Virus record (IMG/VR): IMGVR_UViG_3300044857_000313 | Location: 1 to 64,000 of that record | From: a virus | DNA length: 64,000 bases | Reading direction: 5' to 3' (one strand) | Shown: one piece after another, positions 9,474-63,583 of the stretch | How positions within the stretch are numbered: the first letter of the stretch is position 1 | How the letters are laid out: every line of letters begins with the position of its first letter | The notes under the pieces: generated by a model | Databases searched by the model: none | The model's input: the letters and a program-made list of their open reading frames with translations, nothing else | Told to the model about the DNA's origin: nothing | Program-made: the position numbers and the translations under genes

Positions 9474-11258
9474 TTACTTTTTTAAATGGTGGTAGAATCG
9501 TTTTCCTGCTTCCTTCTGTCTTGCTTCGGAGAAGTTGCTAATGCGTTTCAGATACCCAATAACACGAGTACCATAATCAACATCCGTGCTCCCACATTTC
9601 ACACAATGGGTTTCTGTGTCTGTATTGATGTAGCCACATTCATTGCAAATCGTACACAAGACATTGGTTGTCCAATACTGTACACCATACTTAGAGCAAA
9701 GCTTATACAAATGGACAAACTGTTCTGCACTCAACATCTGTTCAAGATTCAGATGGAGCGCCGAACCCCCATCAAGGTACTGAACAATGTCCTTTGAATA
9801 CAATTTGAGCTTATCAAGTACATTCACCTTCGTGTCTTCTACAGGGTAGAAATAACTGTTGTAACAATCACGAGGTACATAAAGACCTGCTTCCTTATCC
9901 CATTTAGCATTTTTAACACCGAGATTTTCGGCAGGAACAAACTCAGTATTGAAGCGGACTCCATACTCAGACAGAGCGGCCTTATTAGACATCGTAAGGA
10001 AAGACAACAAGGACTGTAAATAATTAAGATATTCCTTGTCTGTCACAGTACCTTTCTTATCTCTCAGGTACTCAAAGTATTCCAAGACACCATTCACACC
10101 AAGGGTCAAGAACTGCTTATCAATGTCCATGAAGCCCTGTGTGTACGCAGGGAGCAAACCTGCATCAATATAGCCTTTCAACACTTCACGATGGGCCAAC
10201 AGGTACTTATGTACTCTGTCCACTACTTCGTCAAGCTTAATACCACATTGACCGATACGGTTGATGTTCAAACTAATGACACGAGCAGAACCCGTAACAA
10301 CACCACCTGCACCCAACGTATAACTGAATGTGTTGTCGGCCAATTTATTGCGCAAACGACAGCAAGACGCAAGACTATCCACCTTGTCAGACATATAGAC
10401 AAAGAAGGAAAGACCTTGTTCCTGTTCCTTTGCTAGTGTCTGCATAAAATCATTATCCTTGAAACCACCTCTGCCATCGGTCAAGAGTGCGGCGGTGACA
10501 ACAGGGAACGTCAACAACTCTTTTTCTCGTTCCTGTCTGAACCATCGCAAGAAATGCAACTGCAACCGATAGGTGCTTTCAATGTCTACCTGTGTACCGT
10601 CTGGATAGTAGAAACCACCAAACATTTCTTTCAGGTAATCATGATCAAACACACTCACATTCCAAAAGACAGACTGGTCCCCTCGTGCGCTGGCGGGCTG
10701 ATTCAGTGCGTAGACAACGCCCTGAAATTCCTGATTGACTTCTTCAAAGTGTTTACCAAGGTAATTTTTGCCCCACTGTTTCCGTGCAAAGTAGTCAAAC
10801 ATGTGAAGGAACTCAACAGTAGCAATAGCTCCACTGAAATTACTTGCAATCTGATAAACAAGATTGACAAAGGAACCGCAAAAGCTCTGCAAGTTCTTCG
10901 GTGCTTTAGACACACCGCCTAAGCACTTCGTACCCTCCAACAAGAAGGGATACAAAGTGATACTGGCACAATAAGGTTTCAAAGATGTTTCATCATGTGT
11001 ATAGATATAATGATTTGCAAGGTCCTCTTCATAAGCCGTTGCCATGTCTTCGCCAAACATCTGAGTCAGTTTGTCTTTAACCAATTTACGGTTAATCTGA
11101 ATAGTATCTGGCTTAAATAATTCCGCTTCCAAGCCTGCAATCGTCTTCTGAGTAACATTACTGTTCGCATCTACCTTAGAGGCCGTAGCGGCATTGGAAG
11201 ACACCATATAATCATGGATGTATTTAATCTTTTCTTTTAAATCAACATTAGGTAACAT
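9474..11258 (-). CDS. nrdD: anaerobic (class III) ribonucleoside-triphosphate reductase, copy A
   Basis: C-terminal CxxC..CxxCG zinc site then glycyl-radical motif TRVIGYL; start set at MLPNVDL just after nrdG stop (ORF track extends to 11315). Confidence 0.85.
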   Translation of the reverse strand: MLPNVDLKEKIKYIHDYMVSSNAATASKVDANSNVTQKTIAGLEAELFKPDTIQINRKLVKDKLTQMFGEDMATAYEEDLANHYIYTHDETSLKPYCASITLYPFLLEGTKCLGGVSKAPKNLQSFCGSFVNLVYQIASNFSGAIATVEFLHMFDYFARKQWGKNYLGKHFEEVNQEFQGVVYALNQPASARGDQSVFWNVSVFDHDYLKEMFGGFYYPDGTQVDIESTYRLQLHFLRWFRQEREKELLTFPVVTAALLTDGRGGFKDNDFMQTLAKEQEQGLSFFVYMSDKVDSLASCCRLRNKLADNTFSYTLGAGGVVTGSARVISLNINRIGQCGIKLDEVVDRVHKYLLAHREVLKGYIDAGLLPAYTQGFMDIDKQFLTLGVNGVLEYFEYLRDKKGTVTDKEYLNYLQSLLSFLTMSNKAALSEYGVRFNTEFVPAENLGVKNAKWDKEAGLYVPRDCYNSYFYPVEDTKVNVLDKLKLYSKDIVQYLDGGSALHLNLEQMLSAEQFVHLYKLCSKYGVQYWTTNVLCTICNECGYINTDTETHCVKCGSTDVDYGTRVIGYLKRISNFSEARQKEAGKRFYHHLKK

Positions 11259-11259
11259 T

Positions 11260-11799
11260 CTACACCCTCTTCCAAAATTTGTGTGTCTCATCCAGGAAGT
11301 ATGGACGACCATCAACTAAATTATCTTGTGCGTCAAGACGATAGGTTGCCGTGATTCGATAGAACCTCTGGTTTGTCCGTGTGCTTTCAAGACCACCCAA
11401 TGTAGCAACATAAGGGCCTGTCTTCAACCAAGTACAATGCCCTTCAACTGCAATCATCTTGTCATGGTCTTCATCATCACTCCCACTGTACAAACCTGTA
11501 GGAGCAATGAAAGCCAAATCACGTAGGAGAGCGATTAAAGATTCATCTGTGATATGCTTATTATTTGTACCGCCCATTACAACAATAGCGTTTGCCCCTG
11601 CATCAACGGCGTCCTGTGCTTCTTCTAAAATATCAAGAAGGGACGTTAAGTCCACATCTTCGTTCTGTAATTCTGGACTATGACAACCAACACAATGTTG
11701 TTTGCAAGCCCCTAATTCAAGCGCATAGGCCATTTTATCAGGCAATTCGTTGAATGTAATATCTGTATTAACAACAGGGTACTTTAAAACTCTTGACAT
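11260..11799 (-). CDS. nrdG: class III RNR activating enzyme (radical SAM), copy A
   Basis: CKQHCVGC = CxxxCxxC cluster motif, directly upstream of nrdD. Confidence 0.7.
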   Translation of the reverse strand: MSRVLKYPVVNTDITFNELPDKMAYALELGACKQHCVGCHSPELQNEDVDLTSLLDILEEAQDAVDAGANAIVVMGGTNNKHITDESLIALLRDLAFIAPTGLYSGSDDEDHDKMIAVEGHCTWLKTGPYVATLGGLESTRTNQRFYRITATYRLDAQDNLVDGRPYFLDETHKFWKRV

Positions 11800-16486: not shown

Positions 16487-16509
16487 TTCTTCGTTAGGTG
16501 CCACAATTA
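16487..16509 (-). promoter_or_regulatory. phage RNAP promoter, type A (TAATTGTGGCACCTAAC|GAAGAA)
   Basis: 23-nt T7-architecture motif (-17 TAAT, +1 G) repeated in arm A; tandem with next. Confidence 0.65.
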
Positions 16510-16535
16510 AAAAGACACACCTTGAAAGACTTTCT

Positions 16536-16558
16536 TTCTTCGTTAGATGCCACAATTA
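16536..16558 (-). promoter_or_regulatory. phage RNAP promoter, type A variant (TAATTGTGGCATCTAAC|GAAGAA)
   Basis: 49-bp tandem repeat of the previous unit, one change at -5. Confidence 0.5.
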
Positions 16559-16728
16559 AATGTGTGTCTTGCTACAAAGAGAAAAAGACATACAAAAAGA
16601 GAAATACTTAAATTATTTATATTAATTATTAATTATCATCAATAATTAATAATAAAAGAACTATAAGTATCTTAAAGTATCTTTAAGTATATATAGTTAC
16701 TTTAAGTATCTTATAGTTCTTTTCTCTT
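16559..16728. other. AT-rich repeat region between phage promoters, candidate replication origin (arm A)
   Basis: very AT-rich; 12-bp inverted repeat AAGAACTATAAG/CTTATAGTTCTT, three AAGTATCTT repeats; flanked by phage promoters downstream of the RNAP gene, as at the T7 primary origin. Confidence 0.4.
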
Positions 16729-16751
16729 CTCTTCGTTAGGTGCCACAATTA
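16729..16751 (-). promoter_or_regulatory. phage RNAP promoter, type A
   Basis: TAATTGTGGCACCTAAC|GAAGAG immediately after RNAP stop. Confidence 0.65.
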
Positions 16752-16766
16752 CAAACTATATAATAT

Positions 16767-19400
16767 TTATGCAAAGCAGTATTTGCTGTTTATCACCTCA
16801 TCAAGATTTAAATTTCCTTTTGTTGGAAGTTCAGGTACTTCTTTATTCGAGGGTAAAAGATATTCTACATCATCCAGCCATTCTTCTAAATAATTATGTC
16901 CTTTGTACATGTTGACTAATTCGGTGCGGATCGCCTTAAATATGCTCCCTGCGTGTTCCATATCTGTACCAAAGCTGTCATGAATCATAAAGAAATTATT
17001 GTTCCCCTTTTCTGCCTGATTCATGATAACTCGTTGCATGTGACAAGCATCCATAGAGTGGATAAAGTTCGGTGCGATTGCTTGTGCTTGTCCTCGTGTG
17101 TCTATATCTGTACCCTCTTTAGGGACGTATAAGCGAATGAAACCCCCATTAAAGCGCATCTTACATGTTTCAATATTAGGTACAAACTTGTTCTGTTGAA
17201 TCGGTAAGCCATTTGGGCTTGTCCATGCTACAGCCTCTCCGTTCTTACCAACCATGCCTGCAATCTTTTTCAGCCACTCCATCCCTTCAACAGCCTTTAC
17301 AACCGTTGTGGTTACAGCATCCCAAATAAGACCTGCCATGTAGTTTGCGGCCTGTGAGCGACTCAAGAAAATCGTGTTGTCTTTATGTTCGTCAATCCAT
17401 GGCTTGATAATGTCGCTCTTGAGATTTTCGGAGAATCCATATTTACGGCTTCCATAGGCAAGAGTCATGACGGAGCGTTTGCACACTTTACGCTTGATAC
17501 CATCTGTACCAAACTTTTGTTGTGCATAAGACAACCATTCTGTAGCCAACTCTTTTGTACCGTACACAATGCACTTTTTACCGTTGCTGTCAAGTACATA
17601 TTCGCCATTTTTTTTGTCTTTTTTGTAGTCGTCTGCCGTCCCTGTAATGACATCTTGATGTAAGACAACATTCACCTTATCCGCTACAACTTGATAAATG
17701 TCATGGACGGTTTCGTCGGGAATTAGATTAACGTTCTTGCCCCCTATTTCATCGGCGAGGAGCATGGAGAAATGTTGTAAGCCTGAGCAGGTTCCGTCAA
17801 AGCTGATAGGAAGACCCGACTTGAATCCCACAGCAGACCCGTCATGATCAGATTGATAGACACGGAGTCTTTCAAATTCAAAACAGAAGGCCAGAAATTC
17901 CATGGGACTCTCATCGCCTGCCACTTCGTCCCACCATGTATACGTTAAAGGGGAAGCGGCGCTCTGTAAAATGTTGTCTTCATTATCAAGTACCCATTGG
18001 ATACGGTCATCAAAGGGAATCTTGTCAAGACCTGCAAAGCCTGCGCCTGCAATGTAAAACCACTTGAGGGCTTCGTTACTTGACAAGGGTGTTGGCTCCG
18101 CAAAGAGGAGTAAGGCTTTCTGTGTGTCGTCCCCCTGCGGATTCAAGGCAGGACACATAGGGTATATACGTCCTCTATAGTCTAAGTTCCATGGGAAGTA
18201 GATTTTTTCATACTTGCTGTACTTCTTTGCACAGCCTAAAGAGGTATTTGTTCTAAGCACCTTGGATGCTCTAGCTCTTTCATGCTTGTAATAAGCAACA
18301 AGACGTTTTTTATGAGCTTCAAGTTCTTCGGGTGTCGGGTCAATCAAATGTGGAATTTTGGGCGTTTCGTCCGTTCTGGGAAGGCCCCCTAAGCCCCCAT
18401 GGTTCTCCATAATAGACGCCATGGTATTAAGGATTCTTTCGTTGATTATAAAAGGTGTTGACTGTAAAGCATTAACGCACTTGAAAAGCCATGTTAAGTC
18501 AAGCTGTTCACACTTTTCTAAATACTGTGTCATATAAACATTATGTTGGTTAAAGTTGGCACGGATAAAATGAGCAAAAAGAGCATTTGCACCATAATAA
18601 GCGCCTTCCCATACACTGCTCCACGGTTTAGGGGGTACGACACAGGGATTGAATTTATATGTATTTAAAGCAAGCATATCAATACTTTTTTCCCATGTTT
18701 CTACAAGCCAGTCGACGGCCTTTAAGACTTTACGCTGTCCTAGTTTACCGTTTTTGTTTTCTGCTTCTGTTTTGTACTCAAAGTAGTCACTACCTTTTAA
18801 AACCGCATCCACTAAGACAAGGAGCAATTTATATAAATTGGTAGTGTCTAATTCTTGCGGTGAAAATCCCATAGCTTTATAAGCTTTATGGGCATATTGT
18901 ACTTTGTATTCTTTTTGACCTCGATGTTTCAAACCATCTTCAAAAAAGGCTCCGTCCTGCCGTGTGGCATTTTTTAAGTATTCGTAACTTGTTACTTCTT
19001 CCCTAAAATCGTCCGCAAGCCCATCCATAAAGCAATCAAGGTATGTATAAGTATCGCCTGCGCTATGTAAGACAGCACCAATAAGCGTATTTAAAATTGT
19101 GGTGACACTCATTTTAATTAGTGTGTCTTCATCCCCTTCATAAAGGGCCTTGAGTTGGTTTACAACCCCTTGATATTTTGGCACTACTCCCCTTTTTTTC
19201 TGAGGAAATAAAACGTTTTTCACGTTGTCATAGCAATCAGAAAATACATGTTCCATTAATTTGCTTCCTACTTTTGTTTCTCCTGCTTTACCATCTAAGG
19301 CCGCTTGAGCATAAGTAGCTTTTAATACCTGTTCCGCTAACTGTTTCGATTCTTTTTCAAGTGCTAATTGTTCTTGTAAAGTACCCTTGATTTTTTTCAT
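16767..19400 (-). CDS. single-subunit DNA-directed RNA polymerase (T7 gp1-like), copy A
   Basis: T7 RNAP C-terminal motifs AIAPNFIHSMDA, FFMIHDSFGT, LPTKGNLNLDEV..KYCFA; start aligned with copy B MEKIKGTLQEQ (ORF open to 19406). Confidence 0.95.
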   Translation of the reverse strand: MKKIKGTLQEQLALEKESKQLAEQVLKATYAQAALDGKAGETKVGSKLMEHVFSDCYDNVKNVLFPQKKRGVVPKYQGVVNQLKALYEGDEDTLIKMSVTTILNTLIGAVLHSAGDTYTYLDCFMDGLADDFREEVTSYEYLKNATRQDGAFFEDGLKHRGQKEYKVQYAHKAYKAMGFSPQELDTTNLYKLLLVLVDAVLKGSDYFEYKTEAENKNGKLGQRKVLKAVDWLVETWEKSIDMLALNTYKFNPCVVPPKPWSSVWEGAYYGANALFAHFIRANFNQHNVYMTQYLEKCEQLDLTWLFKCVNALQSTPFIINERILNTMASIMENHGGLGGLPRTDETPKIPHLIDPTPEELEAHKKRLVAYYKHERARASKVLRTNTSLGCAKKYSKYEKIYFPWNLDYRGRIYPMCPALNPQGDDTQKALLLFAEPTPLSSNEALKWFYIAGAGFAGLDKIPFDDRIQWVLDNEDNILQSAASPLTYTWWDEVAGDESPMEFLAFCFEFERLRVYQSDHDGSAVGFKSGLPISFDGTCSGLQHFSMLLADEIGGKNVNLIPDETVHDIYQVVADKVNVVLHQDVITGTADDYKKDKKNGEYVLDSNGKKCIVYGTKELATEWLSYAQQKFGTDGIKRKVCKRSVMTLAYGSRKYGFSENLKSDIIKPWIDEHKDNTIFLSRSQAANYMAGLIWDAVTTTVVKAVEGMEWLKKIAGMVGKNGEAVAWTSPNGLPIQQNKFVPNIETCKMRFNGGFIRLYVPKEGTDIDTRGQAQAIAPNFIHSMDACHMQRVIMNQAEKGNNNFFMIHDSFGTDMEHAGSIFKAIRTELVNMYKGHNYLEEWLDDVEYLLPSNKEVPELPTKGNLNLDEVINSKYCFA

Positions 19401-19440
19401 ATGCATTTACTTCCTTTCTTTAAGTGACACATTTTTTATT

Positions 19441-19463
19441 TATTTCGATAGGTGCCACAATTA
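19441..19463 (-). promoter_or_regulatory. phage RNAP promoter, type A, directly upstream of the RNAP gene
   Basis: TAATTGTGGCACCTATC|GAAATA, about 40 nt upstream of RNAP start. Confidence 0.6.
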
Positions 19464-19582
19464 AACTTTTAGGTTGACAAAATATTTGTTAGTATTTTAA
19501 ACATACGTTTGGTGCTTGATTAAAAAATAATAAAGATAGACAGCAATCATCTATCTACGAACACTTGTTCGATACCTAGGGT

Positions 19583-20775: not shown

Positions 20776-20845
20776 ATGGCTTGTCTCATCGGTAGGCAGG
20801 TTGCCAGCCTTACCTAGACAAGGGATTTTAGTCCCTTGTTTCGAC
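20776..20845 (-). repeat. 70-nt structured leader element, copy 1
   Basis: near-identical 70-nt copy at 21375-21444; each ends 20-27 nt upstream of a start codon. Confidence 0.5.
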
Positions 20846-21348: not shown

Positions 21349-21374
21349 AATGTGTACCCCTTTCGTTATGTGAA

Positions 21375-21444
21375 ATGGCTTGTCTCATCGGTAGGACGGT
21401 AGCCAGCCGTTCCTAGACAAGGGATTTTAGTCCCTTGTTTCGAC
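21375..21444 (-). repeat. 70-nt structured leader element, copy 2
   Basis: see 20776-20845; a compensatory change in the inner stem distinguishes the copies. Confidence 0.5.
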
Positions 21445-21693
21445 AGCGTTTACAAATTCTTGCCATGCTCTTCTTTCTATCCCGTCACAGATATAGTCAA
21501 GGACGGTATTTCTTTCTACCCTGTCGGGAATTTGAATTGAGAGTAAAAGGCGTAAAATGTTTCGCTTATCAAACCAACCGTCGTTTATACTTTCTAACCT
21601 GTCTAAATTGTTTTCTTTGTAAATGTAGGTTTGAATGTAGGACATTTCATCAATCGTGTTTAAAATCTTTTCTTGTAATCTTTCTTCTAACAT
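21427..21693 (-). CDS. hypothetical early protein (88 aa), first gene after host-type promoters
   Basis: ORF with AGAGAGG SD. Confidence 0.5.
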   Translation of the reverse strand: MLEERLQEKILNTIDEMSYIQTYIYKENNLDRLESINDGWFDKRNILRLLLSIQIPDRVERNTVLDYICDGIERRAWQEFVNAVETRD

Positions 21694-21708
21694 ATGGGCC
21701 TCTCTTTC

Positions 21709-21738
21709 TGTATATCAGTGGATATACACACTAGTTAA
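21709..21738 (-). promoter_or_regulatory. host-type promoter (TTAACT-N18-TATACA) overlapped by palindromic operator O1 (21710-21727)
   Basis: operator GTATATC-AGTG-GATATAC covers spacer and -10. Confidence 0.45.
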
Positions 21739-21785
21739 AAATTTTTAGGGGAGTGTGTTTCTTGTGTTCCCCTTTCGTTGTATAC

Positions 21786-21814
21786 AGTATATCAGTGGAT
21801 ATACATTTTGTCAA
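21786..21814 (-). promoter_or_regulatory. host-type early promoter (TTGACA-N17-TATACT) overlapped by operator O2 (21787-21804)
   Basis: consensus -35, 17-nt spacer; the same 18-bp palindrome as O1 lies over spacer and -10. Confidence 0.6.
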
Positions 21815-21874
21815 GCATTTTTCAAAAGAAATTTTAGAAAGACACACAAAACCGCATTACTAAGCCATTTATTA

Positions 21875-21903
21875 TAGACAACTTTCTCATTTCATGGTAT
21901 GAT
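21875..21903 (+). promoter_or_regulatory. host-type promoter for RHH gene (TAGACA-N17-TATGAT with TG extension)
   Basis: divergent from the early promoters; about 50 nt upstream of the RHH start. Confidence 0.55.
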
Positions 21904-21953
21904 ATGTATATCAAAAGACACACATATATAGAAATAAGAAGGGAGTGAAAAGA

Positions 21954-22112
21954 ATGACAGGCAAAGAAGACAAGCACAAAGATGTAATGATACAAGTACG
22001 TGTACCCAAAGAAGTACGAGACGAGTTTAGACAGTTAGTGGATAAAAAAGCACAGACACAAGCTAAAGTGATCAGACAGTTAATAGAAAGATACATACAA
22101 GATAATAAATAA
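21954..22112 (+). CDS. ribbon-helix-helix (CopG/Arc-like) DNA-binding protein, candidate repressor
   Basis: 52-aa ORF below track cutoff: MTGKEDKHKDVMIQVRVPKEVRDEFRQLVDKKAQTQAKVIRQLIERYIQDNK; GGGAG SD; beta-strand then two helices pattern. Confidence 0.6.
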   Translation: MTGKEDKHKDVMIQVRVPKEVRDEFRQLVDKKAQTQAKVIRQLIERYIQDNK

Positions 22113-22120
22113 AGACACAA

Positions 22121-22166
22121 AAAGGCCCCACACAAGCGTAAATGCTCATGTAGGGCCTTTTATTTA
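22121..22166. terminator. bidirectional hairpin terminator between convergent genes
   Basis: AAAGGCCC..24 nt..GGGCCTTT then TTATTT on plus; A-run on the other side. Confidence 0.55.
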
Positions 22167-22167
22167 T

Positions 22168-22491
22168 CTATCTATCATGTTTTTGATTAAAGACAACATT
22201 ATTCATATTTTCTATTGTTCTTAATTGTGATGTATCTTTATCAAGCATATCTAAATATATACATATCTCTTCTAAATAATGATTTTCTAATGATATTTTA
22301 AATAAATTAAGTATTGTCATTATTAAAGCTACATCAAGTTTGTTGTCTTTATTATTGATTGTGTATAAAGCATAAACACAAGCAACCTCTAATAAATAAA
22401 AATGTTGTTTCATCTTTACATATTTAAAGTAAGTCACAAAAAGAAGGAATAAAGTTAATAGAAGACACGCAATAATTATTTTGTTCACCAT
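22168..22491 (-). CDS. AT-rich membrane protein (moron-like)
   Basis: N-terminal TM IIIACLLLTLFLLFVTYF; visibly lower GC than the rest; start set at MVNKII with AAGGGAG SD. Confidence 0.5.
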   Translation of the reverse strand: MVNKIIIACLLLTLFLLFVTYFKYVKMKQHFYLLEVACVYALYTINNKDNKLDVALIMTILNLFKISLENHYLEEICIYLDMLDKDTSQLRTIENMNNVVFNQKHDR

Positions 22492-22615
22492 TTCCAACAC
22501 TCCCTTTATGATATTTTATATCCCTATCATATCATAAATATCTATGTGTGTCTTTGTGTCTTCTCATCGTACTTATTATGTACTATACAGTGTGATTGTA
22601 GCGACGACTACAAGG

Positions 22616-22655
22616 ATACTAAGAGGTACTAAGAGAGTCTAAGAGGTACTAAGTG
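22616..22655. repeat. four tandem 10-bp repeats (ATACTAAGAG GTACTAAGAG AGTCTAAGAG GTACTAAGTG)
   Basis: read directly; related TCTAAGCG x2 at about 23154-23171. Confidence 0.6.
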
Positions 22656-22888
22656 ATACCGTAAAGATACCAACAGATGACAGAACACATGTAAAACCAC
22701 GATTGAACAAAATTTCAAAACACAACGGATAACCATGCACACCCATGCACACCCCTTCACAAACATATGAACAATCATTCATATATAAAATAAAACAGAT
22801 ACAGTTGATTCAGTTAACTATCTAAAAAACACCCTACATACTTACACGGTTCCGTGTGTATCATATAAAAATCATATGTAAACACGTA

Positions 22889-22917
22889 TTTACAAGCACT
22901 TTATAAGCACGTATAAT
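22889..22917 (+). promoter_or_regulatory. strong host-type promoter (TTTACA-N17-TATAAT) facing the integrase gene
   Basis: perfect -10; spacer contains AGCAC-N6-AGCAC, a motif recurring at 24299 and 24451. Confidence 0.55.
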
Positions 22918-23194
22918 GTTGGTAGAGCTTGATAGTAAGTGATGTAGGGTATTATAAATTGTAATGGCCGATACAATAAGGGCTGGCTAGGTTGCCATGG
23001 TGTGCAATAAGAGCGGAAAAGACTGAAAATGTACTAGAGGTACTGTGAAGATGTGAAGCGGCCGAAACGAAGGCCATACGGGGGAAAGCGGAACTCGAAG
23101 CCCGACACGTAAGGCCTCACAGATTTTTTAGAATTTTTAAAGTCCGAAGCGTATCTAAGCGATTCTAAGCGTACCCGAAAGGAGAAGACACACA

Positions 23195-24298
23195 ATGCCA
23201 AGAACACGACAAAGACGAAATAAGGGTGAAGGTTCGATAACCAAGACACCCAATGGGAAGTACAAAGCCACCATCACGATTGGAGTGGGTATTGATGGCA
23301 AGCAAAAGAGGAAGTCGGTAACAAGAGACACCAAGCGAGAAGTCATCGACGCCATCACGGAAATAAGACACAAATATAATATAGGTGATGTATCAAAGGG
23401 TGTGTCTAAGAGCGTCAAGGACGTTTGTGATGAGTTTTTAGACACCAAGGAACAGAAACTCACTGTGTCCTCTTTCGTGTCTTACAAAATGCACATCAAG
23501 GCATTTAAAGAGGTGTTTGGAAATATGATGATGGAAAATATAACAAAGACCATGATTGAGGATTACTTTAAGTCCCTGTCCCCTCATCATTATAAACCAA
23601 CTACCTTAAAGACCAAGAAGGCTATATTGTCTATCTTCTTTAGAGAAGCAAAGAAGGCAGGGTATATCAAAGAGAATATAATGGAGACAGCCAGTATCCC
23701 TATCAAGCGTGTCTTACCCAAGGCATCTACTATGATACTCCCCACTCCTGAACAGTTCCATAGGATACTAGAGGAAGCGGAAAAGTATGCCCATTGGTAT
23801 TATGTGCTCCTCTATTTTGCCTCTGTTACAGGAATGAGACGAGGAGAACTTTTAGGATTGAAATGGGACTGTGTGGATAAAGACACCAAGACGATCAGAA
23901 TTAATAATCAAATAAACATCAAGGGTGTAGACAGTCCATTAAAGACCCCTGCGGCCTATCGGACAATTCATGTCACCCCAAAGGCTTTTGAGGAGCTAGA
24001 CACACTGCCACATGAAGGAGCTTATGTTTTTTCGCGTCCCAAAGCCCCTACAAGGCCTGTTACAAGAGCTATGGTGTCTTTGGCTACCAACAGGGTATTT
24101 AAGGCCGCTGAGGCCCCAAAGGGATTTACTTTTCATGATGTAAGACATTATCACGCAACACAGCTTTTAAAGCATGGTATTAACCCAAAGGTTGTCAGTA
24201 GGAGATTAGGACACACATCGGTAGTTACTACCCTCAACATCTACTTTAATTATCTCCCCAGTATGGACGAAGAGGCCAGTGTTGTCTTAGACACGTAA
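23195..24298 (+). CDS. int: tyrosine integrase
   Basis: 367-aa ORF; N-terminal SAM-like arm domain, catalytic region TGMRRGE..HDVRHYHAT..LGHTSVVTTLNIY (R..HxxR..Y). Confidence 0.9.
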   Translation: MPRTRQRRNKGEGSITKTPNGKYKATITIGVGIDGKQKRKSVTRDTKREVIDAITEIRHKYNIGDVSKGVSKSVKDVCDEFLDTKEQKLTVSSFVSYKMHIKAFKEVFGNMMMENITKTMIEDYFKSLSPHHYKPTTLKTKKAILSIFFREAKKAGYIKENIMETASIPIKRVLPKASTMILPTPEQFHRILEEAEKYAHWYYVLLYFASVTGMRRGELLGLKWDCVDKDTKTIRINNQINIKGVDSPLKTPAAYRTIHVTPKAFEELDTLPHEGAYVFSRPKAPTRPVTRAMVSLATNRVFKAAEAPKGFTFHDVRHYHATQLLKHGINPKVVSRRLGHTSVVTTLNIYFNYLPSMDEEASVVLDT

Positions 24299-24463
24299 GT
24301 GCTTATAAGGTGCTTATATGAGAAATAGACACGAGTACATGAAATTATAAATGGCTAAAAATAGCGGTTTTCCTCTGTTCTTAGCTATTTATAATTTTAT
24401 TCCATATTCTATCAAGAATAAGACAACCATGCTGTTTATAAGATATGTGAGTGCTTATAGGTG

Positions 24464-24706
24464 CTAAAGGGTAATACTTGTGTCTATCGAGTGGCGCAAG
24501 AACTCGTATAGACCTTTGCGGTGTATTCTCCAATGAGTACCTATCTTAAATGCTTTCAAGGATTCATTATAGCACAAGGCGTAAACAGTAGACAAGGGAA
24601 CTCCTAGCATCTCTGAAACTTCTTTAGGAGAGAAGGTAAGGCGAGTGTCCCATTTATGAGAAGGAGTTGAGGTGAAACCATCAACATCAATACTTAAATA
24701 GGCCAT
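24464..24706 (-). CDS. xis: excisionase-like helix-turn-helix protein
   Basis: FSPKEVSEMLGVPLSTVYALCYNESLKAFKIGTHWRI typical of the Xis/HTH_17 family; convergent with int. Confidence 0.55.
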   Translation of the reverse strand: MAYLSIDVDGFTSTPSHKWDTRLTFSPKEVSEMLGVPLSTVYALCYNESLKAFKIGTHWRIHRKGLYEFLRHSIDTSITL

Positions 24707-24846
24707 AAGGCTCCTTTCGTAGACTAAAGGAAATCTTAGTAGACTTGAGATATGAAAAAATAGTAAGAAGCTTTAAGAATCTCTTTCTTTGATTTATCAT
24801 CATCATCAACAATCATCATTAAAGAATCTCTAGTCCCATATCTGTC

Positions 24847-24893
24847 ATAATAATAAAATATGAGGTTCTAGTCAGAACCGACTAGAACCTCAT
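24847..24893 (-). terminator. strong hairpin terminator downstream of terL-distal phage promoters
   Basis: perfect 14-bp stem AUGAGGUUCUAGUC-GGUUCU-GACUAGAACCUCAU then AUUUUAUUAUUAU. Confidence 0.65.
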
Positions 24894-24930
24894 AGATTCT
24901 ATTAGATACTATATATACTTTTCGTCTCTT

Positions 24931-24953
24931 TTCTTCGGTTGGTGCCACAATTA
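24931..24953 (-). promoter_or_regulatory. phage RNAP promoter-like site, type A core (TAATTGTGGCACCAACC|GAAGAA)
   Basis: shares -17..-5 with arm A promoters; just after terL stop. Confidence 0.5.
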
Positions 24954-24957
24954 ATTT

Positions 24958-24980
24958 TTTGTTTAATGGTGCCACAATTA
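24958..24980 (-). promoter_or_regulatory. phage RNAP promoter-like site, type A core, divergent -4..+1
   Basis: TAATTGTGGCACCATTA|AAC. Confidence 0.35.
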
Positions 24981-24988
24981 ATTTCTGT

Positions 24989-25603
24989 CTAATTATCATG
25001 TAGCTCTCTAATAGCTTTTATACATCTATTATTATGCGAACTATTTGTATAATTAGGCAATACGGATTCATTCAGCCAATCCTCAAGCTGTTCAGCTGTC
25101 AGCTCTGTAAGTTGACTATCTTCATCCACATCCATGCGCTCCATAAAATAAGACACCCCAATAGTCAGGGCATCCAATCTATCATCATGACTTAGGGCGT
25201 TCTTATCACGACATAAGCGTGTCATTTGATAAATCAGGGAATAATGATAGTCCTGTTGGAAGACCTTAAAATCCTGTTCTACTACTGGACGATTCACAAT
25301 TAGCTTATGCCGCATCATAACCGGCTCTAGGGTGTCTATCATACGCAATTCCTTTTGCCCTCTATTGGTAACAGGTTCAATGCCGCAAGGGTGGATTTTA
25401 TTGAAGATAGGTGTCATCAACTTAGTGAACATGCCATCCCCAAAGTTATCTTCGGGAACTACAACATCCACATCCCAGAACTTAGCACGATTTGCCATCT
25501 GAGTCAGCGTCAAGTCCGAATATCCCTCTTTAAAGCCCCCTACATCCATAAGGAACAAATAGCCATTCAGGTACTTTAAGATTGCATAGACTGTTTCGTC
25601 CTT
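24989..25603 (-). CDS. terL: terminase large subunit, exon 2 (nuclease domain)
   Basis: begins KDETVYAILKYLNGYLFLMDVGG, continuing the ..AIDPSGRG of exon 1; no ATG (track start is TTG). Confidence 0.85.
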   Translation of the reverse strand, partial: KDETVYAILKYLNGYLFLMDVGGFKEGYSDLTLTQMANRAKFWDVDVVVPEDNFGDGMFTKLMTPIFNKIHPCGIEPVTNRGQKELRMIDTLEPVMMRHKLIVNRPVVEQDFKVFQQDYHYSLIYQMTRLCRDKNALSHDDRLDALTIGVSYFMERMDVDEDSQLTELTAEQLEDWLNESVLPNYTNSSHNNRCIKAIRELHDN

Positions 25604-26414
25604 CAATCAGCCTATGCGTTCTGCTTTCCAACCCTTTGAGTGATGTCGGTTTCCTTTAGCCACTTGACGTAGATTTTGGGGTGAAAGATTATGCTCTCTG
25701 CAAAAAGCAGTAAAAGAAAAAGGCTCATACATCGTACCATCAGGTGCAATAAGCCTGAATCTTTCACCCTGTCCATAATTATGAGGAACATGCCCTTTTT
25801 GAAGAGTAGTAGGGAGACAGTCAGCACATACTGTCCCTGACTTGCGTTTTTGTAAATATTTACCACAAATAGGACAACGAACTGTTTTTCTGTCTCCCCC
25901 TGCTCTTACATTCCACCCCATATGCATTTTAGGACGTAGATTATATTCTATTGTTAATGCTTCTTCTTTTGGTAACATAGCAATTAAATCAATTTGAATA
26001 TTATCCTTACCCAGTTGTCTTAGAATTGTGCCAACAGGTCTCTTGCTACACATATGCTGACTAAGACGATAGGAAAGACTACGGCGAGTAACACCCACAT
26101 AACCTTCCTGTATATTTCTGTTTCCTACTTCATGGATATGGTACACTTTATATAATCTTGTTTTTTCTCTAAACAATAACATCACTCTCTTTTCTTTTTA
26201 GTGTTACGGTACATCGTTAGGGTACCTCACTATATTGCTATAGTGTTCAGACTATATCTTCTATCAAAAGATAGTGCGCTGTTTCCACCGAACCATTGCG
26301 GTGTACTAATAGTCGTTGAACGTTTCCTTATAAAAGGACTTCGCTGCTGATTGTCTTAGAAAGAGTTTCCAGCAATTAAGCGCATTTTTTAACGTAGGAG
26401 CAAGGACGTATTTT
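25604..26414 (-). mobile_element. group I intron-like element in terL carrying a GIY-YIG gene
   Basis: guide sequence GUCCUU-GCUCCUA (26395-26407) pairs with 3' exon AAGGAC and 5' exon UAGGGGU (U.G at splice site); intron ends in G; 229-nt ORF-free 5' part with several hairpins incl. GCAA tetraloop. Confidence 0.7.
25607..26185 (-). CDS. GIY-YIG homing endonuclease
   Basis: YKVYHI..GYVGVT..R..QH..E..GWNVRAGG plus C-terminal NUMOD-like HHSKGW. Confidence 0.8.
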   Translation of the reverse strand: MMLLFREKTRLYKVYHIHEVGNRNIQEGYVGVTRRSLSYRLSQHMCSKRPVGTILRQLGKDNIQIDLIAMLPKEEALTIEYNLRPKMHMGWNVRAGGDRKTVRCPICGKYLQKRKSGTVCADCLPTTLQKGHVPHNYGQGERFRLIAPDGTMYEPFSFTAFCREHNLSPQNLRQVAKGNRHHSKGWKAERIG

Positions 26415-27497
26415 ACCCCTACCCGATGGGTCTATAGCCATCACTGTTGTCTGATAGGGCATCGTTTCGGGACTACGGGACAGCTCACTGTAGTAATAGT
26501 CCCCTGCCATGGCTGTACAGGGAATATCAGACAAGAGCTGTTCCCTGCCTTTTGCCCATGCCCATTTGAGGCTACTTTCCTTCATATCAAGGTTAGTGAT
26601 AATCAAATCAGACACCTTCAACGGATACTTTTCAGCATCCGACAACCGAGTATTGAGCATATACTGGAGAGCAAACCCTGCTTTCCCATAAGACAAGGAA
26701 CGCTTCGCAATTTCTTCCTCATTGAATCGCAAGGGGTCTGTAGGCTTCCCTTCAAGACTAGGGTCAGCTTTCAGTTTGTTCCAAATAGAGGGAGCAAGGG
26801 AATCACCATAATTATCTTCTACCCTTGATAATTGAGGATACAAGACAGGCCAGATACGCGCAATATATCCACGGTCTTGTAAGGTGTTGTACAGACTTGA
26901 TTCAGTCTGTGGTGTACCGAGATATATGATCTGGCCGTTCGGTTTCAAGATAGCATCAAATTCCTTTACGGCCTCTGAGAGCTTATCACGCTGTTGCTGT
27001 GTTGCTGAGTTTTTCGGGACTTCTACGTCATCGGCAATTAGAATGTCTGCACGTGTCCCTGTAATCTGCCCAGTGATACCAATGGACTTTACAGAGGGGG
27101 AAATATCAGGAACGACACCCCCAACATCAAAGATATTCTGTGTGTCTAACTGCCCCTTGTCTGCAATCATGTCAGACAAGAAAGGGAGTGTCTGTATGAT
27201 ACGCTTGATAAAGCGAGCGTTCGCATCCGCTCTGTCCCCAGAGGCAGACACAATCAAAATCTTTAGCTGTCTTTCCTTCCACAATCTCCACACTACATAA
27301 GCACATGTCAAGAAGGACTTAGCGACACCACGGAACCCCTCAAGAATGATACGGTCTTTAGGGGGGTTCTGGAGATAGTTTGCAATGTCAATTTGAATGG
27401 GTGTCGGCTGTGGAAGGTCAATAGACCGCCATACAATATAGACAAAGGCCCAGAAGTGTTCACGTGCCTTCTGGACATCCGCTTCACTCCATTTCAA
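26415..27497 (-). CDS. terL: terminase large subunit, exon 1 (ATPase domain)
   Basis: Walker A-like GFRGVAKS, ILIADDVE; ORF runs 12 codons into the intron before its stop (26376). Confidence 0.85.
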
Positions 27498-27747: not shown

Positions 27748-28202
27748 TCATCCTCTCTCCATACTACATACTTTTAAATCTTTGTGTGTCTTCCCAAATA
27801 TAATGATTGCACTAGGGAAAGGCGCACTATTCTTACTGTTTCCAAATTTCAAACATCCTTTGATGAAACGAATCTCTGAGGCTTGCATGGCGTACTCATG
27901 CCACCACTTTGTGTCTGTTCGTGAAGGTACGAGGCAGACAACGATTGTCTCTGCTTCCATTGCTTTCTTCATCCAAGCTCCTATTTTTTTTTTCCATAGG
28001 GTGGATTCATCCAACAGACACCCTGCCAGTCTTGAGCTAGACCGTCATCAAGGGGTGAAAAGAACTTAGAGCATTTTGCATTTTCAGAGGTAGCACATAC
28101 ATCTATATCAAAATGAAATTCATCATTCAATCTATTAAATAACTCTTGTGGTGTCTCCCACACTTCATTTTCACTACTATATAAAACCTTATTTATCGCC
28201 AC
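27748..28202 (-). CDS. dam: DNA N6-adenine methyltransferase (phage Dam family) interrupted by frameshift at A10 tract
   Basis: ORF 27981..28202 ends NPPYGKKK-stop; ORF 27748..28014 continues KKKIGAWMKKA..LVPSRTDTKWWH in the frame reached by one extra A; T10 on plus at 27984-27993; GTG start with AGGAGG SD. Confidence 0.7.
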
Positions 28203-60477: not shown

Positions 60478-60500
60478 TTCTTCACTACGTGGCACAATTA
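60478..60500 (-). promoter_or_regulatory. phage RNAP promoter, type B (TAATTGTGCCACGTAGT|GAAGAA)
   Basis: first of three tandem units (49-52 bp period). Confidence 0.65.
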
Positions 60501-60526
60501 AAAAAGACACCACTTGAAGACTTTCT

Positions 60527-60549
60527 TTCTTCACTACGTGGCACAATTA
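60527..60549 (-). promoter_or_regulatory. phage RNAP promoter, type B
   Basis: identical 23-mer. Confidence 0.65.
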
Positions 60550-60578
60550 AAAAAGACACCATGGAAGATTGTTTTTCT

Positions 60579-60601
60579 TTCTTCACTACGTGGCACAATT
60601 A
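60579..60601 (-). promoter_or_regulatory. phage RNAP promoter, type B
   Basis: identical 23-mer. Confidence 0.65.
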
Positions 60602-60837
60602 AATGTTTGTGTCTTATCCTTCGATAAAGAGAAAAAGACACACAAAAAGAGAAATATTTAAATTATTTATATTAATTATTAATTATCATCAATAATAAAT
60701 AATAAAAGAGAAATATTTAAATTATTTATATTAATTATTAATTATCATCAATAATAAATAATAAAAGAACTATAAGTATCTTAAAGTATTTTTAAGTATA
60801 TATAGTTACTTTAAGTATCTTATAGTTCTTTTCTCTT
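60602..60837. other. AT-rich repeat region, candidate replication origin (arm B), with 59-bp tandem duplication
   Basis: unit AGAGAAATATTTAAATTATTTATATTAATTATTAATTATCATCAATAATAAATAATAAA at 60648-60706 and 60707-60765; single copy in arm A. Confidence 0.4.
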
Positions 60838-60860
60838 CTCTTCACTACGTGGCACAATTA
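60838..60860 (-). promoter_or_regulatory. phage RNAP promoter, type B, just after RNAP stop
   Basis: TAATTGTGCCACGTAGT|GAAGAG. Confidence 0.65.
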
Positions 60861-60875
60861 CAAATCATGTTATAT

Positions 60876-63524: not shown

Positions 63525-63547
63525 TTCTTCAATACGTGGCACAATTA
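63525..63547 (-). promoter_or_regulatory. phage RNAP promoter, type B, directly upstream of RNAP gene
   Basis: TAATTGTGCCACGTATT|GAAGAA. Confidence 0.6.
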
Positions 63548-63583
63548 ATTTCATAAAAGCAAACTAATGTTTGGTACTTAGGT

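Follow-up and report, generated by a model that had tools for sequence, protein, structure and literature searches.

The region of the window (the whole 64-kb stretch of DNA that was analysed) between the early genes and terL is most probably (roughly 0.78, judged from the sequences) a module for lysogeny and immunity, belonging to a temperate T7-like podovirus that infects Megasphaera. In this module a ribbon-helix-helix (RHH) protein, placed on its operators, would silence the RNA polymerase (RNAP) cascade. All ORFs of the module are intact, and the gene order early gene-RHH-int-xis-terL recurs in independent JGI, SRA and ENA contigs.

The window was originally described as a T7-like genome, and its gene content bears out the T7-like part. 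The profile matches of T7 type include RNA_pol (1e-87), Helic-prim_T7_N, Head-tail_con, Gp10A-like, Phage_nozzle, Phage_T7_tail and Terminase-T7_RNaseH-like, and the products found are the RNAP, a T7 primase-helicase, a portal, a Gp10A capsid, a nozzle, a T7 tail fibre and a T7 terminase nuclease domain. The single-subunit RNAP and the T7-type replication and structural genes are all co-directional, as in a T7-like (Autographiviridae-type) organisation, and the RNAP shows ~33% identity to cultured T7-like phages. The window does not hold a single genome, however. Positions 1-20445 and 43556-64000 are collinear but non-identical copies (75-94% identity), and thus the window consists of two genome variants joined head to tail. 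The junction under study was seen again on independent JGI and SRA contigs (L001, L002 and L114).

The elements from the early operators to the small membrane protein and the array beyond it are the following.

21710-21727: operator O1, the palindrome GTATATC-AGTG-GATATAC, an exact repeat of O2.
21747-21773: conserved hairpin rich in GC, separating O2 from O1 in the early-transcript leader, with a terminator-like scan match.
21786-21814, minus strand: early host-type promoter P_E, TTGACA-17-TATACT, with TG ahead of the -10.
21787-21804: operator O2, the same palindrome, spanning the spacer and five -10 bases of P_E.
21864-21874, plus strand: GCCATTTATTA element, immediately next to the -35 of the RHH promoter.
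21875-21903, plus strand: RHH promoter, TAGACA-17-TATGAT with TG extension, 10/12, conserved in relatives.
21906-21923: weak, half-degenerate operator O3, GTATATCAAAAGACACAC, directly past the -10 of the RHH promoter.
21954-22112, plus strand: 52-aa RHH protein (type A), candidate immunity repressor.
22120-22161: bidirectional terminator hairpin that separates the RHH gene from the membrane-protein gene convergent to it, conserved past the cassette boundary.
22168-22491, minus strand: small membrane protein of 107-110 aa with an N-terminal hydrophobic helix and its own promoter (22554-22526).
22617-22656: tandem decamer array, CTAAGAGGTA-like.

The palindrome GTATATCAGTGGATATAC(A), of 18/19 bp, has exactly two exact copies in 64 kb, namely O1 and O2, in agreement with the original prediction. 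With <=3 mismatches allowed, 0.05 copies are expected, and two were reached in 0/100 shuffles. Each palindrome had been thought to overlap one of two tandem early promoters. This holds for the distal one, P_E, which is near-consensus (11/12 in the consensus scan) and directed on the minus strand toward the early genes and the RNAP gene. The proximal sequence overlapped by O1, TTAACT-18-TATACA, is only weakly promoter-like and did not reach the scan criteria. A second promoter at this position is therefore doubtful, and O1, located between P_E and the first early gene (start 21693), is better called a downstream operator.

A phylogenetic footprint over seven relatives with diverged flanks, in which RHH identity falls to 77-79%, showed O1, O2, the -35/-10 hexamers and the left half of O3 to be invariant; O1 was invariant or near-invariant in the seven aligned type-A relatives and was found at every type-A locus, and both hexamers of P_E are unchanged among relatives. 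The left half-site of O3 is intact in the window, ATGTATATCA within it is conserved in 7/7 aligned relatives, and the site is fuller in L018 (GTATACCAATGGATAGAC) and L016. From its sequence and position, O3 is presumed to be the autoregulation site of the RHH gene. The leader hairpin keeps its stem with a different sequence in each relative (AGGGGA/TCCCCT, GGAACA/TGTTCC, AGGAACG/CGTTCCT and GGGGC/GCCCC) and is also present in type D (GGACAC/GTGTCC).

The 11-mer class of GCCATTTATTA is found three more times, in attP. Its pattern, which was derived post hoc, has four matches in 64 kb, all at the RHH promoter or attP, versus 0.31 expected. There is also an inverted similarity of 28 nt between 21848-21875 and 24344-24371. 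The element is a candidate site for the excisionase or an accessory factor.

A 52-aa RHH gene with its own promoter had been predicted, and the promoter listed above agrees with this. For the protein, three ribbon-helix-helix profiles match concordantly, all under their gathering scores: RHH_5 (E 2.5e-4; 21.2 vs 26), RepB-RCR_reg (7e-4; 19.9 vs 21) and RHH_1 (1.2e-3; 19.1 vs 20.5). PF10723 is the precomputed assignment of 11/11 database homologues. The VMIQVRVP-KEVRDEF pattern aligns to the strand and helix A of Arc, and the motif R-x-P-x-E-V to Arc RWPREV, with marginal similarity (hhalign E 0.007, probability 5%). The top match of the PDB profile search, a weak one, is the RHH protein ORF56 (E 0.14), and the AlphaFold monomer model gives a single long helix (19-51) with no strand, which speaks neither for nor against the RHH fold. 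The protein has no cleavable domain. Among the module proteins, scans of Pfam, PHROG and NCBIfam gave no match to a MarR-like regulator, and scans of Pfam and PHROG no other repressor candidate.

The small membrane protein has no family match in Pfam and PHROG scans. Types A, B and C all keep it, and L007 and L110 have other small membrane proteins in its place. It might be a lysogen-expressed moron, conversion or superinfection-exclusion gene. The copy number of the decamer differs among relatives, L005 having far more units.

Among relatives, the slot between the early promoter and the integrase (roughly 21445-22100 of the window) is filled by one of four exchangeable cassettes. Three of them encode RHH variants (33-38% identical) and the fourth an XRE/RstR-like HTH, and each comes with a set of operators of its own in equivalent places.

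Type A: RHH, with GTATATC..GATATAC operators.
Type B: XRE/RstR-like HTH, with ACAACCnnnTGGTTGT operators.
Type C: 49-aa RHH, 38% identical, with two copies of ATGTAGCTACAT and a half-site at its own promoter.
Type D: 53-aa RHH, with GTAGTG-type repeats, one of them in the spacer of TTGAAA-17-TATACT.

Mixing of operator types between cassettes was never seen, and the excisionase and flanking genes are nearly constant across the types. The Xis-like protein of the window (type A), for instance, is 94-95% identical to that of a type C phage and of the L007/L008 prophages. At the RHH beta-strand positions that correspond in the alignment to Arc Q9/N11/R13, type A has M/Q/R, type C V/R/R and type D F/Q/R. 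Because repressor and operator co-vary over four cassette types at one locus while the Xis-like protein stays constant, the RHH protein is very probably the binder of the palindromic operators, as the original prediction had proposed. Two other candidates for this role were rejected: the Xis-like protein, which does not change when the operators do, and the product of the first early gene, which varies within type A. The statement that no CI-type HTH repressor is present is true for the window but not for the relatives, where the XRE/RstR-like HTH lies in exactly the RHH slot.

The integration functions and the candidate phage-RNAP promoters are located as follows.

22889-22917, plus strand: int promoter-like TTTACA-17-TATAAT, ~280 nt 5' of int, 11/12, conserved.
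23195-24298, plus strand: tyrosine integrase, 367 aa (PF00589, phrog_1).
24299-24318, plus strand: P-arm with two tandem arm-type repeats, GTGCTTATAAG GTGCTTATA.
24339-24400: P-arm inverted repeat, 29 nt, convergent-terminator-like, with two GCYRTTTATWA elements, conserved in L004-L008.
24399-24414: attP core, ATTCCATATTCTATCA.
24451-24470, plus strand: P'-arm arm-type repeats, GTGCTTATAG GTGCTAAAG, overlapping xis at its 3' end, with equivalents in relatives.
24464-24706, minus strand: Xis-like excisionase-family HTH, 80 aa (HTH_17, TIGR01764).
24859-24894: terminator hairpin with a 16-bp stem, between terL and xis.
24940-24983, minus strand: tandem pair of candidate phage-RNAP promoters, AATTAATTGTGGCACCA, just beyond terL and directed toward xis.
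19450-19466, minus strand: candidate promoter for the phage RNAP, 44 nt ahead of the RNAP gene (16767-19406, minus strand).

The integrase matches Phage_integrase PF00589 (E 5.3e-25, 88.6 bits vs a cut-off of 27.1) and phrog_1 (5e-71). The original prediction of a plus-strand tyrosine integrase is strengthened by its alignment to the solved integrase 3nkh, where the full catalytic set (R215, K250, H314, R317, H340 and Y350) is present in conserved boxes. The HTH gene convergent to int, predicted as Xis-like, scores above the cut-offs of HTH_17 (PF12728; E 2.8e-12, 47.1 bits vs 27) and of the NCBIfam 'excisionase family' TIGR01764 (41.8 bits vs 28.8). A candidate excisionase role is hinted at by its location next to attP, its orientation toward int and the 11-mer that recurs in attP. 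Two arm-type repeats (AAGCACTTTATAAGCAC, 22893-22910) fill the spacer of the int promoter, and GTGCTTATA occurs four times in the window, always flanking int or attP, versus 0.58 expected. The candidate phage-promoter motif of ~30 nt has 5-6 copies per genome, all intergenic and on the minus strand, and differs between the two RNAP variants of the window.

Integrated relatives with int at one prophage end had been anticipated, and they exist. A 98%-identical integrase is placed at an attL junction in L004, and the matching empty attB, upstream of mreBCD, is found in L116. The 16-bp core is common to the attP of the window, this attL and this attB, and the flanks switch exactly there. A sister type with the core TATGTTATAA shows attL, attR and empty attB in Megasphaera; two of its prophages, 45 kb each, were recovered with both host flanks (L007+L022 and L008+L023), and in Megasphaera elsdenii the attB that they use is unoccupied. 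Bacterial contigs of 137-372 kb contain type-A prophages, with int at the prophage end. Public data thus contain both integrated and empty sites and, as read from these junctions, the integrase recombines the 16-bp attP core just 3' of its gene with a chromosomal attB. The host of the window phage is probably Megasphaera (gut and bioreactor; Negativicutes).

In the mechanism that we propose, the RHH protein would be transcribed divergently from the early operon, from its own sigma-70-type promoter, and would bind the 18-bp palindromes O1 and O2, whose two 7-bp arms with centres 11 bp apart would suit an Arc-type dimer-of-dimers geometry. O2 would block the spacer and -10 of the sole strong early promoter and O1 would act between this promoter and the first early gene, together denying host RNA polymerase access to the early genes and to the gene of the phage RNAP. 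The candidate phage-type promoter upstream of the RNAP gene would form a positive-feedback loop; a leak would therefore self-amplify, so that tight early repression would be needed and would silence the whole genome. The weak O3, past the -10 of the RHH promoter, would provide negative autoregulation. Downstream of two candidate phage-RNAP promoters, xis would be made only after derepression, and in this way excision may be coupled to the lytic cascade. Int may also regulate itself through the arm-type repeats in the int promoter.

The same operators could serve another purpose, namely the shut-off of host-promoter early transcription after the phage RNAP takes over, in a Cro- or Arc-like manner, with lysogeny kept otherwise or not at all. 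T7-like phages do switch early transcription off, the RHH protein is tiny and without a sensor or cleavage domain, as are Cro and Arc, an induction route is not visible, and the operator layout by itself cannot separate a CI-like from a Cro-like role. This is nevertheless improbable, since the divergence of the RHH gene from the early operon and its presumably autoregulated promoter form a CI-like and not a Cro-like topology, an RstR-like phage repressor takes the same slot in relatives, and the module has no other repressor candidate. Moreover, the contigs retrieved with the RHH protein P0004 carry an identical RHH (5 listed and 24 read, from 98 index blocks), including three prophages with a frameshifted RNAP gene. 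Repression of the lytic cascade in the lysogen remains the preferred reading, and it is unlikely that another factor (the Xis-like HTH, an early protein or a host regulator) binds the palindromes while the RHH protein regulates, for example, int/xis or the membrane gene. In favor of such a factor, the recombinant L012 has a 100% identical RHH gene behind an XRE cassette and no GTATATC operator, so that RHH can be retained where its presumed targets are absent; HTH dimers, too, would suit 18-bp palindromes of this kind, and the RHH family membership is sub-threshold. On the contrary, the operators switch with the RHH or XRE cassette and not with Xis, type A phages differ in their first early gene, a host factor fails to explain four operator types in phages of one host genus, and a half-site lies on the RHH gene's own promoter in both types A and C.

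It is very improbable that the arrangement is an artefact of assembly or concatenation, or a non-functional remnant in decay. The two non-identical genome copies in the window, the truncated int of one relative (L013/L019) and the frameshifted RNAP genes would fit it, but the recurrence of the gene order on independent contigs, the intact ORFs with the integrase catalytic residues and the precise attL, attR and attB junctions oppose it.

Temperate T7-like phages and prophages are known from Agrobacterium, Pseudomonas and enterobacterial prophages (Boeckman et al. 2022), and include Pseudomonas phage LUZ100, pelagiphage HTVC019P and cyanophage P-SSP7. The window phage shares with them a T7-type genome, a single-subunit RNAP, a lysogeny module with an integrase, placed upstream of the RNAP, and the idea that a repressor is needed to silence the RNAP gene; in LUZ100, too, a phage-type promoter is directly upstream of this gene (PMC10134795). 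The regulator proposed for temperate T7-like phages is MarR-like, co-transcribed with int and suggested to act at the RNAP-adjacent promoter (PMC10134795), whereas the candidate here, an RHH protein of 52 aa whose place is taken by an XRE HTH in some relatives, comes from a separate transcription unit and would act at a host-type early promoter. The probable host is a Negativicute rather than a proteobacterium or cyanobacterium, and attB lies between genes (upstream of mreBCD, or at the dcd locus) and not in a tRNA. Literature searches found no reports of a Megasphaera T7-like phage group. Since temperate T7-like phages had been described before, with regulators of MarR type put forward for them, the novelty lies in the putative RHH repressor in a Negativicutes host.

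The proposed system resembles Arc and Mnt of the immI region of Salmonella phage P22 and the CopG-type RHH repressors in the small, putative RHH protein, its proposed autoregulation and the promoter-overlapping palindromic operators with half-site centres ~11 bp apart. Arc and Mnt control the antirepressor region of P22 and not the primary early promoters, and in P22 it is the c2 HTH repressor that maintains lysogeny; the RHH protein of the window, by contrast, is proposed to act on the primary early promoter. In accordance with lambda immunity (cI/cro, OR/OL), a candidate repressor gene diverges from an early promoter with graded multiple operators, one of them on the repressor's own promoter, int adjoins attP and xis is nearby, and, as in heteroimmune lambdoid phages, whole repressor-operator cassettes are swapped between otherwise similar phages. 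Unlike in lambda, the repressor would be of the RHH type, in place of an HTH that carries a domain cleavable through RecA, a counterpart of cro was not identified, and one repressed host promoter would gate an RNAP cascade instead of antitermination. F55 of the Sulfolobus virus SSV1 is an RHH lysogeny regulator that is expressed in the lysogenic state and binds early-gene promoters and its own. SSV1 is an archaeal fusellovirus with an unrelated genome architecture, and F55 is likened here by description.

In the broader view, which we hold at even odds, a 52-aa RHH protein would be the sole master lysogeny repressor of a T7-like lineage in diderm Firmicutes (Megasphaera), gating the self-amplifying RNAP cascade at a single host promoter covered by operators. 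Cassette exchange would have produced at least three immunity specificities of RHH type and an HTH replacement, and induction would be independent of RecA cleavage. If this is true, the RHH immunity sets and the co-varying RNAP/promoter pairs would represent natural orthogonal repressor/operator and polymerase/promoter parts.

Judged from its genes and from related loci, this is a temperate T7-like phage whose Int/attP looks functional and whose promoter-operator architecture is conserved. The T7-like set comprises RNAP, T7 primase-helicase, portal, Gp10A-type capsid, nozzle, T7 tail-fibre N-domain and T7 terminase nuclease domain. When compared by tblastn with an annotated phage collection, the RNAP is at most ~33% identical to that of any cultured phage, and blastn of the lysogeny module against the same collection gave no match. 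The phage genes of the window lie on the minus strand, with int and the ribbon-helix-helix (RHH) gene on the opposite one.

Features of the lysogeny module and early region
27497 to 24989, minus strand: terL, intron-interrupted
24894-24859: strong hairpin between terL and the 80-aa HTH gene
24706-24464, minus strand: 80-aa HTH gene (xis-like), excisionase family
Between the 80-aa HTH and integrase genes: non-coding stretch
23195-24298, plus strand: integrase gene (PF00589)
Between the integrase and membrane-protein genes: conserved non-coding region of 620 bp
22491-22168, minus strand: small membrane-protein gene
22120-22161: bidirectional terminator between the membrane-protein and RHH genes
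21954-22112, plus strand: 52-aa RHH gene
21700-21950: regulatory region
From 21693 downward, minus strand: early genes, including a SprT-like gene
19406-16767, minus strand: RNAP gene

The window exceeds one genome. Positions 1-20445 are collinear with 43556-64000 (75-94% identical), and the whole corresponds to ~1.5 genome lengths with a period of 43,555 bp, two non-identical variants being placed head to tail. Either a tandem double lysogen or, in a mixed population, an assembler lap could account for this. The module itself is not a joining artefact, since its gene order recurs on independent JGI and SRA contigs (L001, L002 and L114).

The two halves of terL (26376-27497 and 24989-25606) are separated by a group I intron (Rfam RF00028, 78.7 bits, E 7e-20; 26228-26465, minus strand) which encodes a GIY-YIG/NUMOD-like homing-endonuclease ORF (25607-26185, minus strand); the same arrangement is found in L001 and L114. 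A Dam-like methyltransferase (27748-28202, minus strand), identified as PF05869 in L001, is divided into two overlapping ORFs (27981-28202 and 27748-28014), which could represent a frameshift or programmed slippage. The phage also encodes an anaerobic ribonucleotide reductase, NrdD (9474-11315, minus strand; E 1e-98), adjoined in relatives by an activase-like gene and consistent with a strictly anaerobic host.

The original prediction described one palindrome placed over two tandem early promoters. The palindrome GTATATCAGTGGATATAC(A) is present in exactly two copies in the 64 kb, even with three mismatches allowed, against 0.05 expected by chance: the proximal O1 (21710-21727) and the distal O2 (21787-21804). 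The tandem promoters held in part. O2 lies within the spacer and -10 of the strong early host-type promoter P_E (21786-21814, minus strand; TTGACA-17-TATACT, 11/12, TG-extended), but O1 overlaps only a poor TTAACT-18-TATACA, absent from the promoter-scan list. Because of these poor hexamers, and its position 17 nt ahead of the start codon of the first early gene, O1 is read as a downstream operator and not as a second promoter. The RHH gene has its own promoter as predicted (TAGACA-17-TATGAT, 10/12). Directly after its -10 lies GTATATCAAAAGACACAC (O3, 21906-21923), with an intact left arm and a degenerate right arm, a putative third, weak operator overlooked previously. No host LexA-type box was evident on inspection of the regulatory region. 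The window has four copies of the 11-mer GCYRTTTATWA, three in attP and one abutting the -35 of the RHH promoter. The pattern was defined post hoc; as a lead only, it suggests that repressor synthesis may be connected with the excisionase or with an accessory protein.

Related loci were taken from IMG/VR, JGI, SRA and ENA assemblies. In seven relatives with the same cassette (type A, RHH 77-100% identical), no change is seen in O1, O2, the -35 and -10 of P_E, the RHH promoter or the left half of O3, and the flanks are divergent or unalignable. With the other relatives, homology is interrupted from ~21445 to 22085-22108 and picks up again at the terminator that follows the RHH gene. This slot is a swappable cassette, with the following alternatives.

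Alternative regulator cassettes (identities to the RHH protein of the window)
Type B, L010: 65-aa XRE HTH, best match an RstR-family phage repressor (66 bits); four to six ACAACCnnnTGGTTGT sites
Type C, L005: 49-aa RHH, 38% identical; ATGTAGCTACAT next to TTGACA, twice, and a half-site after the -10 of its own promoter
Type D, L007: 53-aa RHH, 33% identical; GTAGTG-type repeats including GTCACTctttgtAGTGAC, and one in the spacer of TTGAAA-17-TATACT

The type-B cassette is located at 4500-4940 in L010 and at 5520-5960 in L012. L008 fits none of types A-C, and both L007 and L008 are integrated prophages with both host flanks. Operator types were never seen to co-occur among the loci compared. 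Such co-variation of cassette and operator reads as the classic signature of heteroimmune repressor-operator modules, and this is the main reason for which the RHH protein is accepted as the candidate operator-binding repressor; we infer the role originally proposed for it from this pairing across cassettes. Two other proteins were considered as operator-specific binders. The Xis-like HTH of the window shares 94-95% identity with its counterparts in a type C phage and in the L007 and L008 prophages, and the first early gene (88 aa) differs among type-A members; being near-constant across types and variable within type A, respectively, neither can fill that role.

In the recombinant L012, a type-A RHH gene of 100% identity comes after the XRE cassette, and the GTATATC operator is missing. 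This RHH gene may be a recent remnant or may give the lysogen a second (dual) immunity. A ~70-bp repeat with the hairpin ACAAGGGAttttagTCCCTTGT lies between early genes (20777-20845 and 21373-21445). It is common to all relatives, forms the left boundary of the exchanged immunity cassette and may serve as a linker for recombination or as a site of RNase III-type processing.

Profile searches and alignment bear on the three proteins of the module. The integrase matches PF00589 at 5e-25 and, on alignment, has the full catalytic set R215, K250, H314, R317, H340 and Y350. The Xis-like HTH belongs to the excisionase family (TIGR01764, above cut-off). For the RHH protein, three RHH-clan profile matches were concordant but all just below threshold; PF10723 is carried by 11 of its 11 database homologues. 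An AlphaFold model from its alignment gave one helix and no strand (monomer), and scores against PDB and against Arc/CopG profiles were only marginal. The protein is without a cleavable domain. In Arc, the base-contacting residues are Q9/N11/R13; the residues aligned to them on the N-terminal strand are M12/Q14/R16 in type A, V/R/R in type C and F/Q/R in type D.

Many IMG/VR contigs stop just past int. L004 (int 98% identical) follows the window up to ...ATTCCATATTCTATCA and continues into unrelated DNA. A metagenome search with this flank retrieved L116, in which the same 16 bp lie between the flank and the upstream region of an mreB-mreC-mreD operon, an empty attB. The attP core is placed at 24399-24414, since these 16 bp are common to the window, the L004 junction and L116. 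In the sister type (int 79%), attL (L005, L007 and L008) and attR (L022, L023 and L024) have the common core TATGTTATAA. Its attR flank encodes a TPR-like protein and a dCTP deaminase and shows 95% nucleotide identity to Megasphaera sp. and 87% to M. elsdenii MSK.21.52; Megasphaera was identified by a genome-collection scan with the dcd gene of this host flank. Both Megasphaera sites are unoccupied, with a terminator hairpin, TTTTTTATGYTATAATAC and then a promoter. RNAP peptide patterns detected no prophage in the genome collection. Integrated relatives, the search for which had been proposed, were found: besides L007 and L008, type-A prophages (RHH 79% identical, all three operators kept, different integrase) lie inside 137-372 kb bacterial contigs, with int at the end of the prophage and adjoining RND-pump or other host genes.

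Four copies of the arm-type repeat GTGCTTATA are present in the window, where 0.58 would be expected. Two follow the int stop codon and one or two belong to the P' arm; the spacer of the int promoter-like TTTACA-17-TATAAT is taken up by an inverted pair. One type-A relative (L013 + L019, IMGVR_UViG_3300030463_000014) lacks the part of int from ~codon 62 onward, up to the att core. Its joint (...AAATATAA|CGGATAAAAC...) at core-like sequence suggests an aberrant Int-mediated deletion, and this would be an integration-defective derivative. Upstream of int, CTAAGAG-type decamer arrays (22617-22656 and 23150-23178; L005 5380-5450) differ in the number of units, which is far higher in L005. A highly conserved non-coding block of ~500 bp is enclosed by these arrays and TCTAAGCG repeats, and the arrangement resembles the short-repeat arrays flanking the T7 terminal repeat. 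The block could be a packaging end/terminal repeat, or else an extended int leader that includes a terminator-like hairpin. For the conserved 280-nt int leader, no support from covariation emerged with RNAalifold on five close sequences, and Rfam returned only chance hairpin matches on the module.

Candidate phage-RNAP promoters
Copy 1, minus strand: 16497-16565, 16739-16758, 19450-19470 and 24940-24987; motif TTTAATTGTGGCACCTAACGAAGAAAGAAAG
Copy 2, minus strand: 60488-60608, 60848-60867 and 63535-63554; motif TTTAATTGTGCCACGTAGTGAAGAAAGAAAG

One candidate lies 44 nt upstream of the RNAP gene, and two motif copies (24983-24940) stand between terL and the hairpin, ahead of xis; none was found before structural genes in the window. 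The RNAPs of the two genome copies (879 and 892 aa as listed) have ~84% nucleotide identity, and the differences in motif and polymerase suggest co-evolved specificity. The true start of the second RNAP is probably downstream, because the listed ATG (63554) falls inside a promoter copy. In the integrated type-A prophages L109-L113, an RNAP-gene homopolymer at ~7640 is either G6, with an intact 854-aa RNAP (L110 and L113), or G7, with a frameshift to 251 + 602 aa (L109, L111 and L112, from different samples), which could be prophage decay or a slipped-strand ON/OFF switch.

In the mechanism proposed, RHH tetramers on O2 and O1 would block the one strong host promoter that reads toward the RNAP gene. 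With its own phage-type promoter at that gene, the cascade would be self-amplifying and would therefore have to be blocked at its source. O3 would provide autoregulation of the RHH gene. Placed behind two candidate phage promoters, xis would be made only once RNAP is present, and excision could thus be coupled to induction.

The host of the window's own phage is probably Megasphaera, based on the Megasphaera host of the sister prophages, GC-rich flanks with shared repeat elements, and a Megasphaera MAG with a JGI contig identifier numerically next to that of a phage-bearing sample, which suggests the same project.

The hexamer AGACAC/GTGTCT is ~8-fold over-represented on both strands of the window (235 copies, 3.7 per kb, against 29 expected; for instance 21840, 21916, 22113, 22548, 22556 and 23186), and AAGACACA has 48 copies against 3.7 expected. 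Hexamer density is 0.1-0.25 per kb in Megasphaera host flanks versus 1.5-3.9 per kb in related phage loci. Copies are found at several module junctions, and the L012 recombination joint is exactly at AAGACACACATATA. The motif contains GTGTC, a T7 primase recognition pentamer. The genome-wide enrichment on both strands rules out AAGACACA as an operator or promoter.

T7-like phages were long regarded as strictly lytic. To our knowledge, silencing of the RNAP cascade in temperate ones is still hypothetical, the MarR-based proposal being a model only. The closest mechanistic analogues of the candidate repressor and of the locus are Arc/Mnt/CopG-type RHH repressors and lambda-type immunity regions, respectively. 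Temperate T7-like phages are established, among them LUZ100, the pelagiphages and the prophages of Boeckman et al. 2022 (cited through PMC10134795); a MarR-like protein co-transcribed with int is proposed as their regulator (PMC10134795). The module of this phage has no MarR-like protein. As described for LUZ100 (PMC10134795), the RNAP gene has its own phage-type promoter, here a candidate. A literature search for T7-like prophages of Megasphaera or Negativicutes found nothing relevant.

The locus would offer a compact, testable switch, made up of a 52-aa putative repressor, a single strong host promoter, a pair of identical operators and a weak operator for autoregulation. Three further natural specificity variants could act as controls. 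The repressor/operator and RNAP/promoter pairs are candidate orthogonal parts for engineering. Temperate T7-like phages are extended to Negativicutes, bacteria of the gut, the rumen and chain-elongation bioreactors, and such temperate phages bear on whether 'T7-like' can be equated with 'safe lytic' in therapy or process control.
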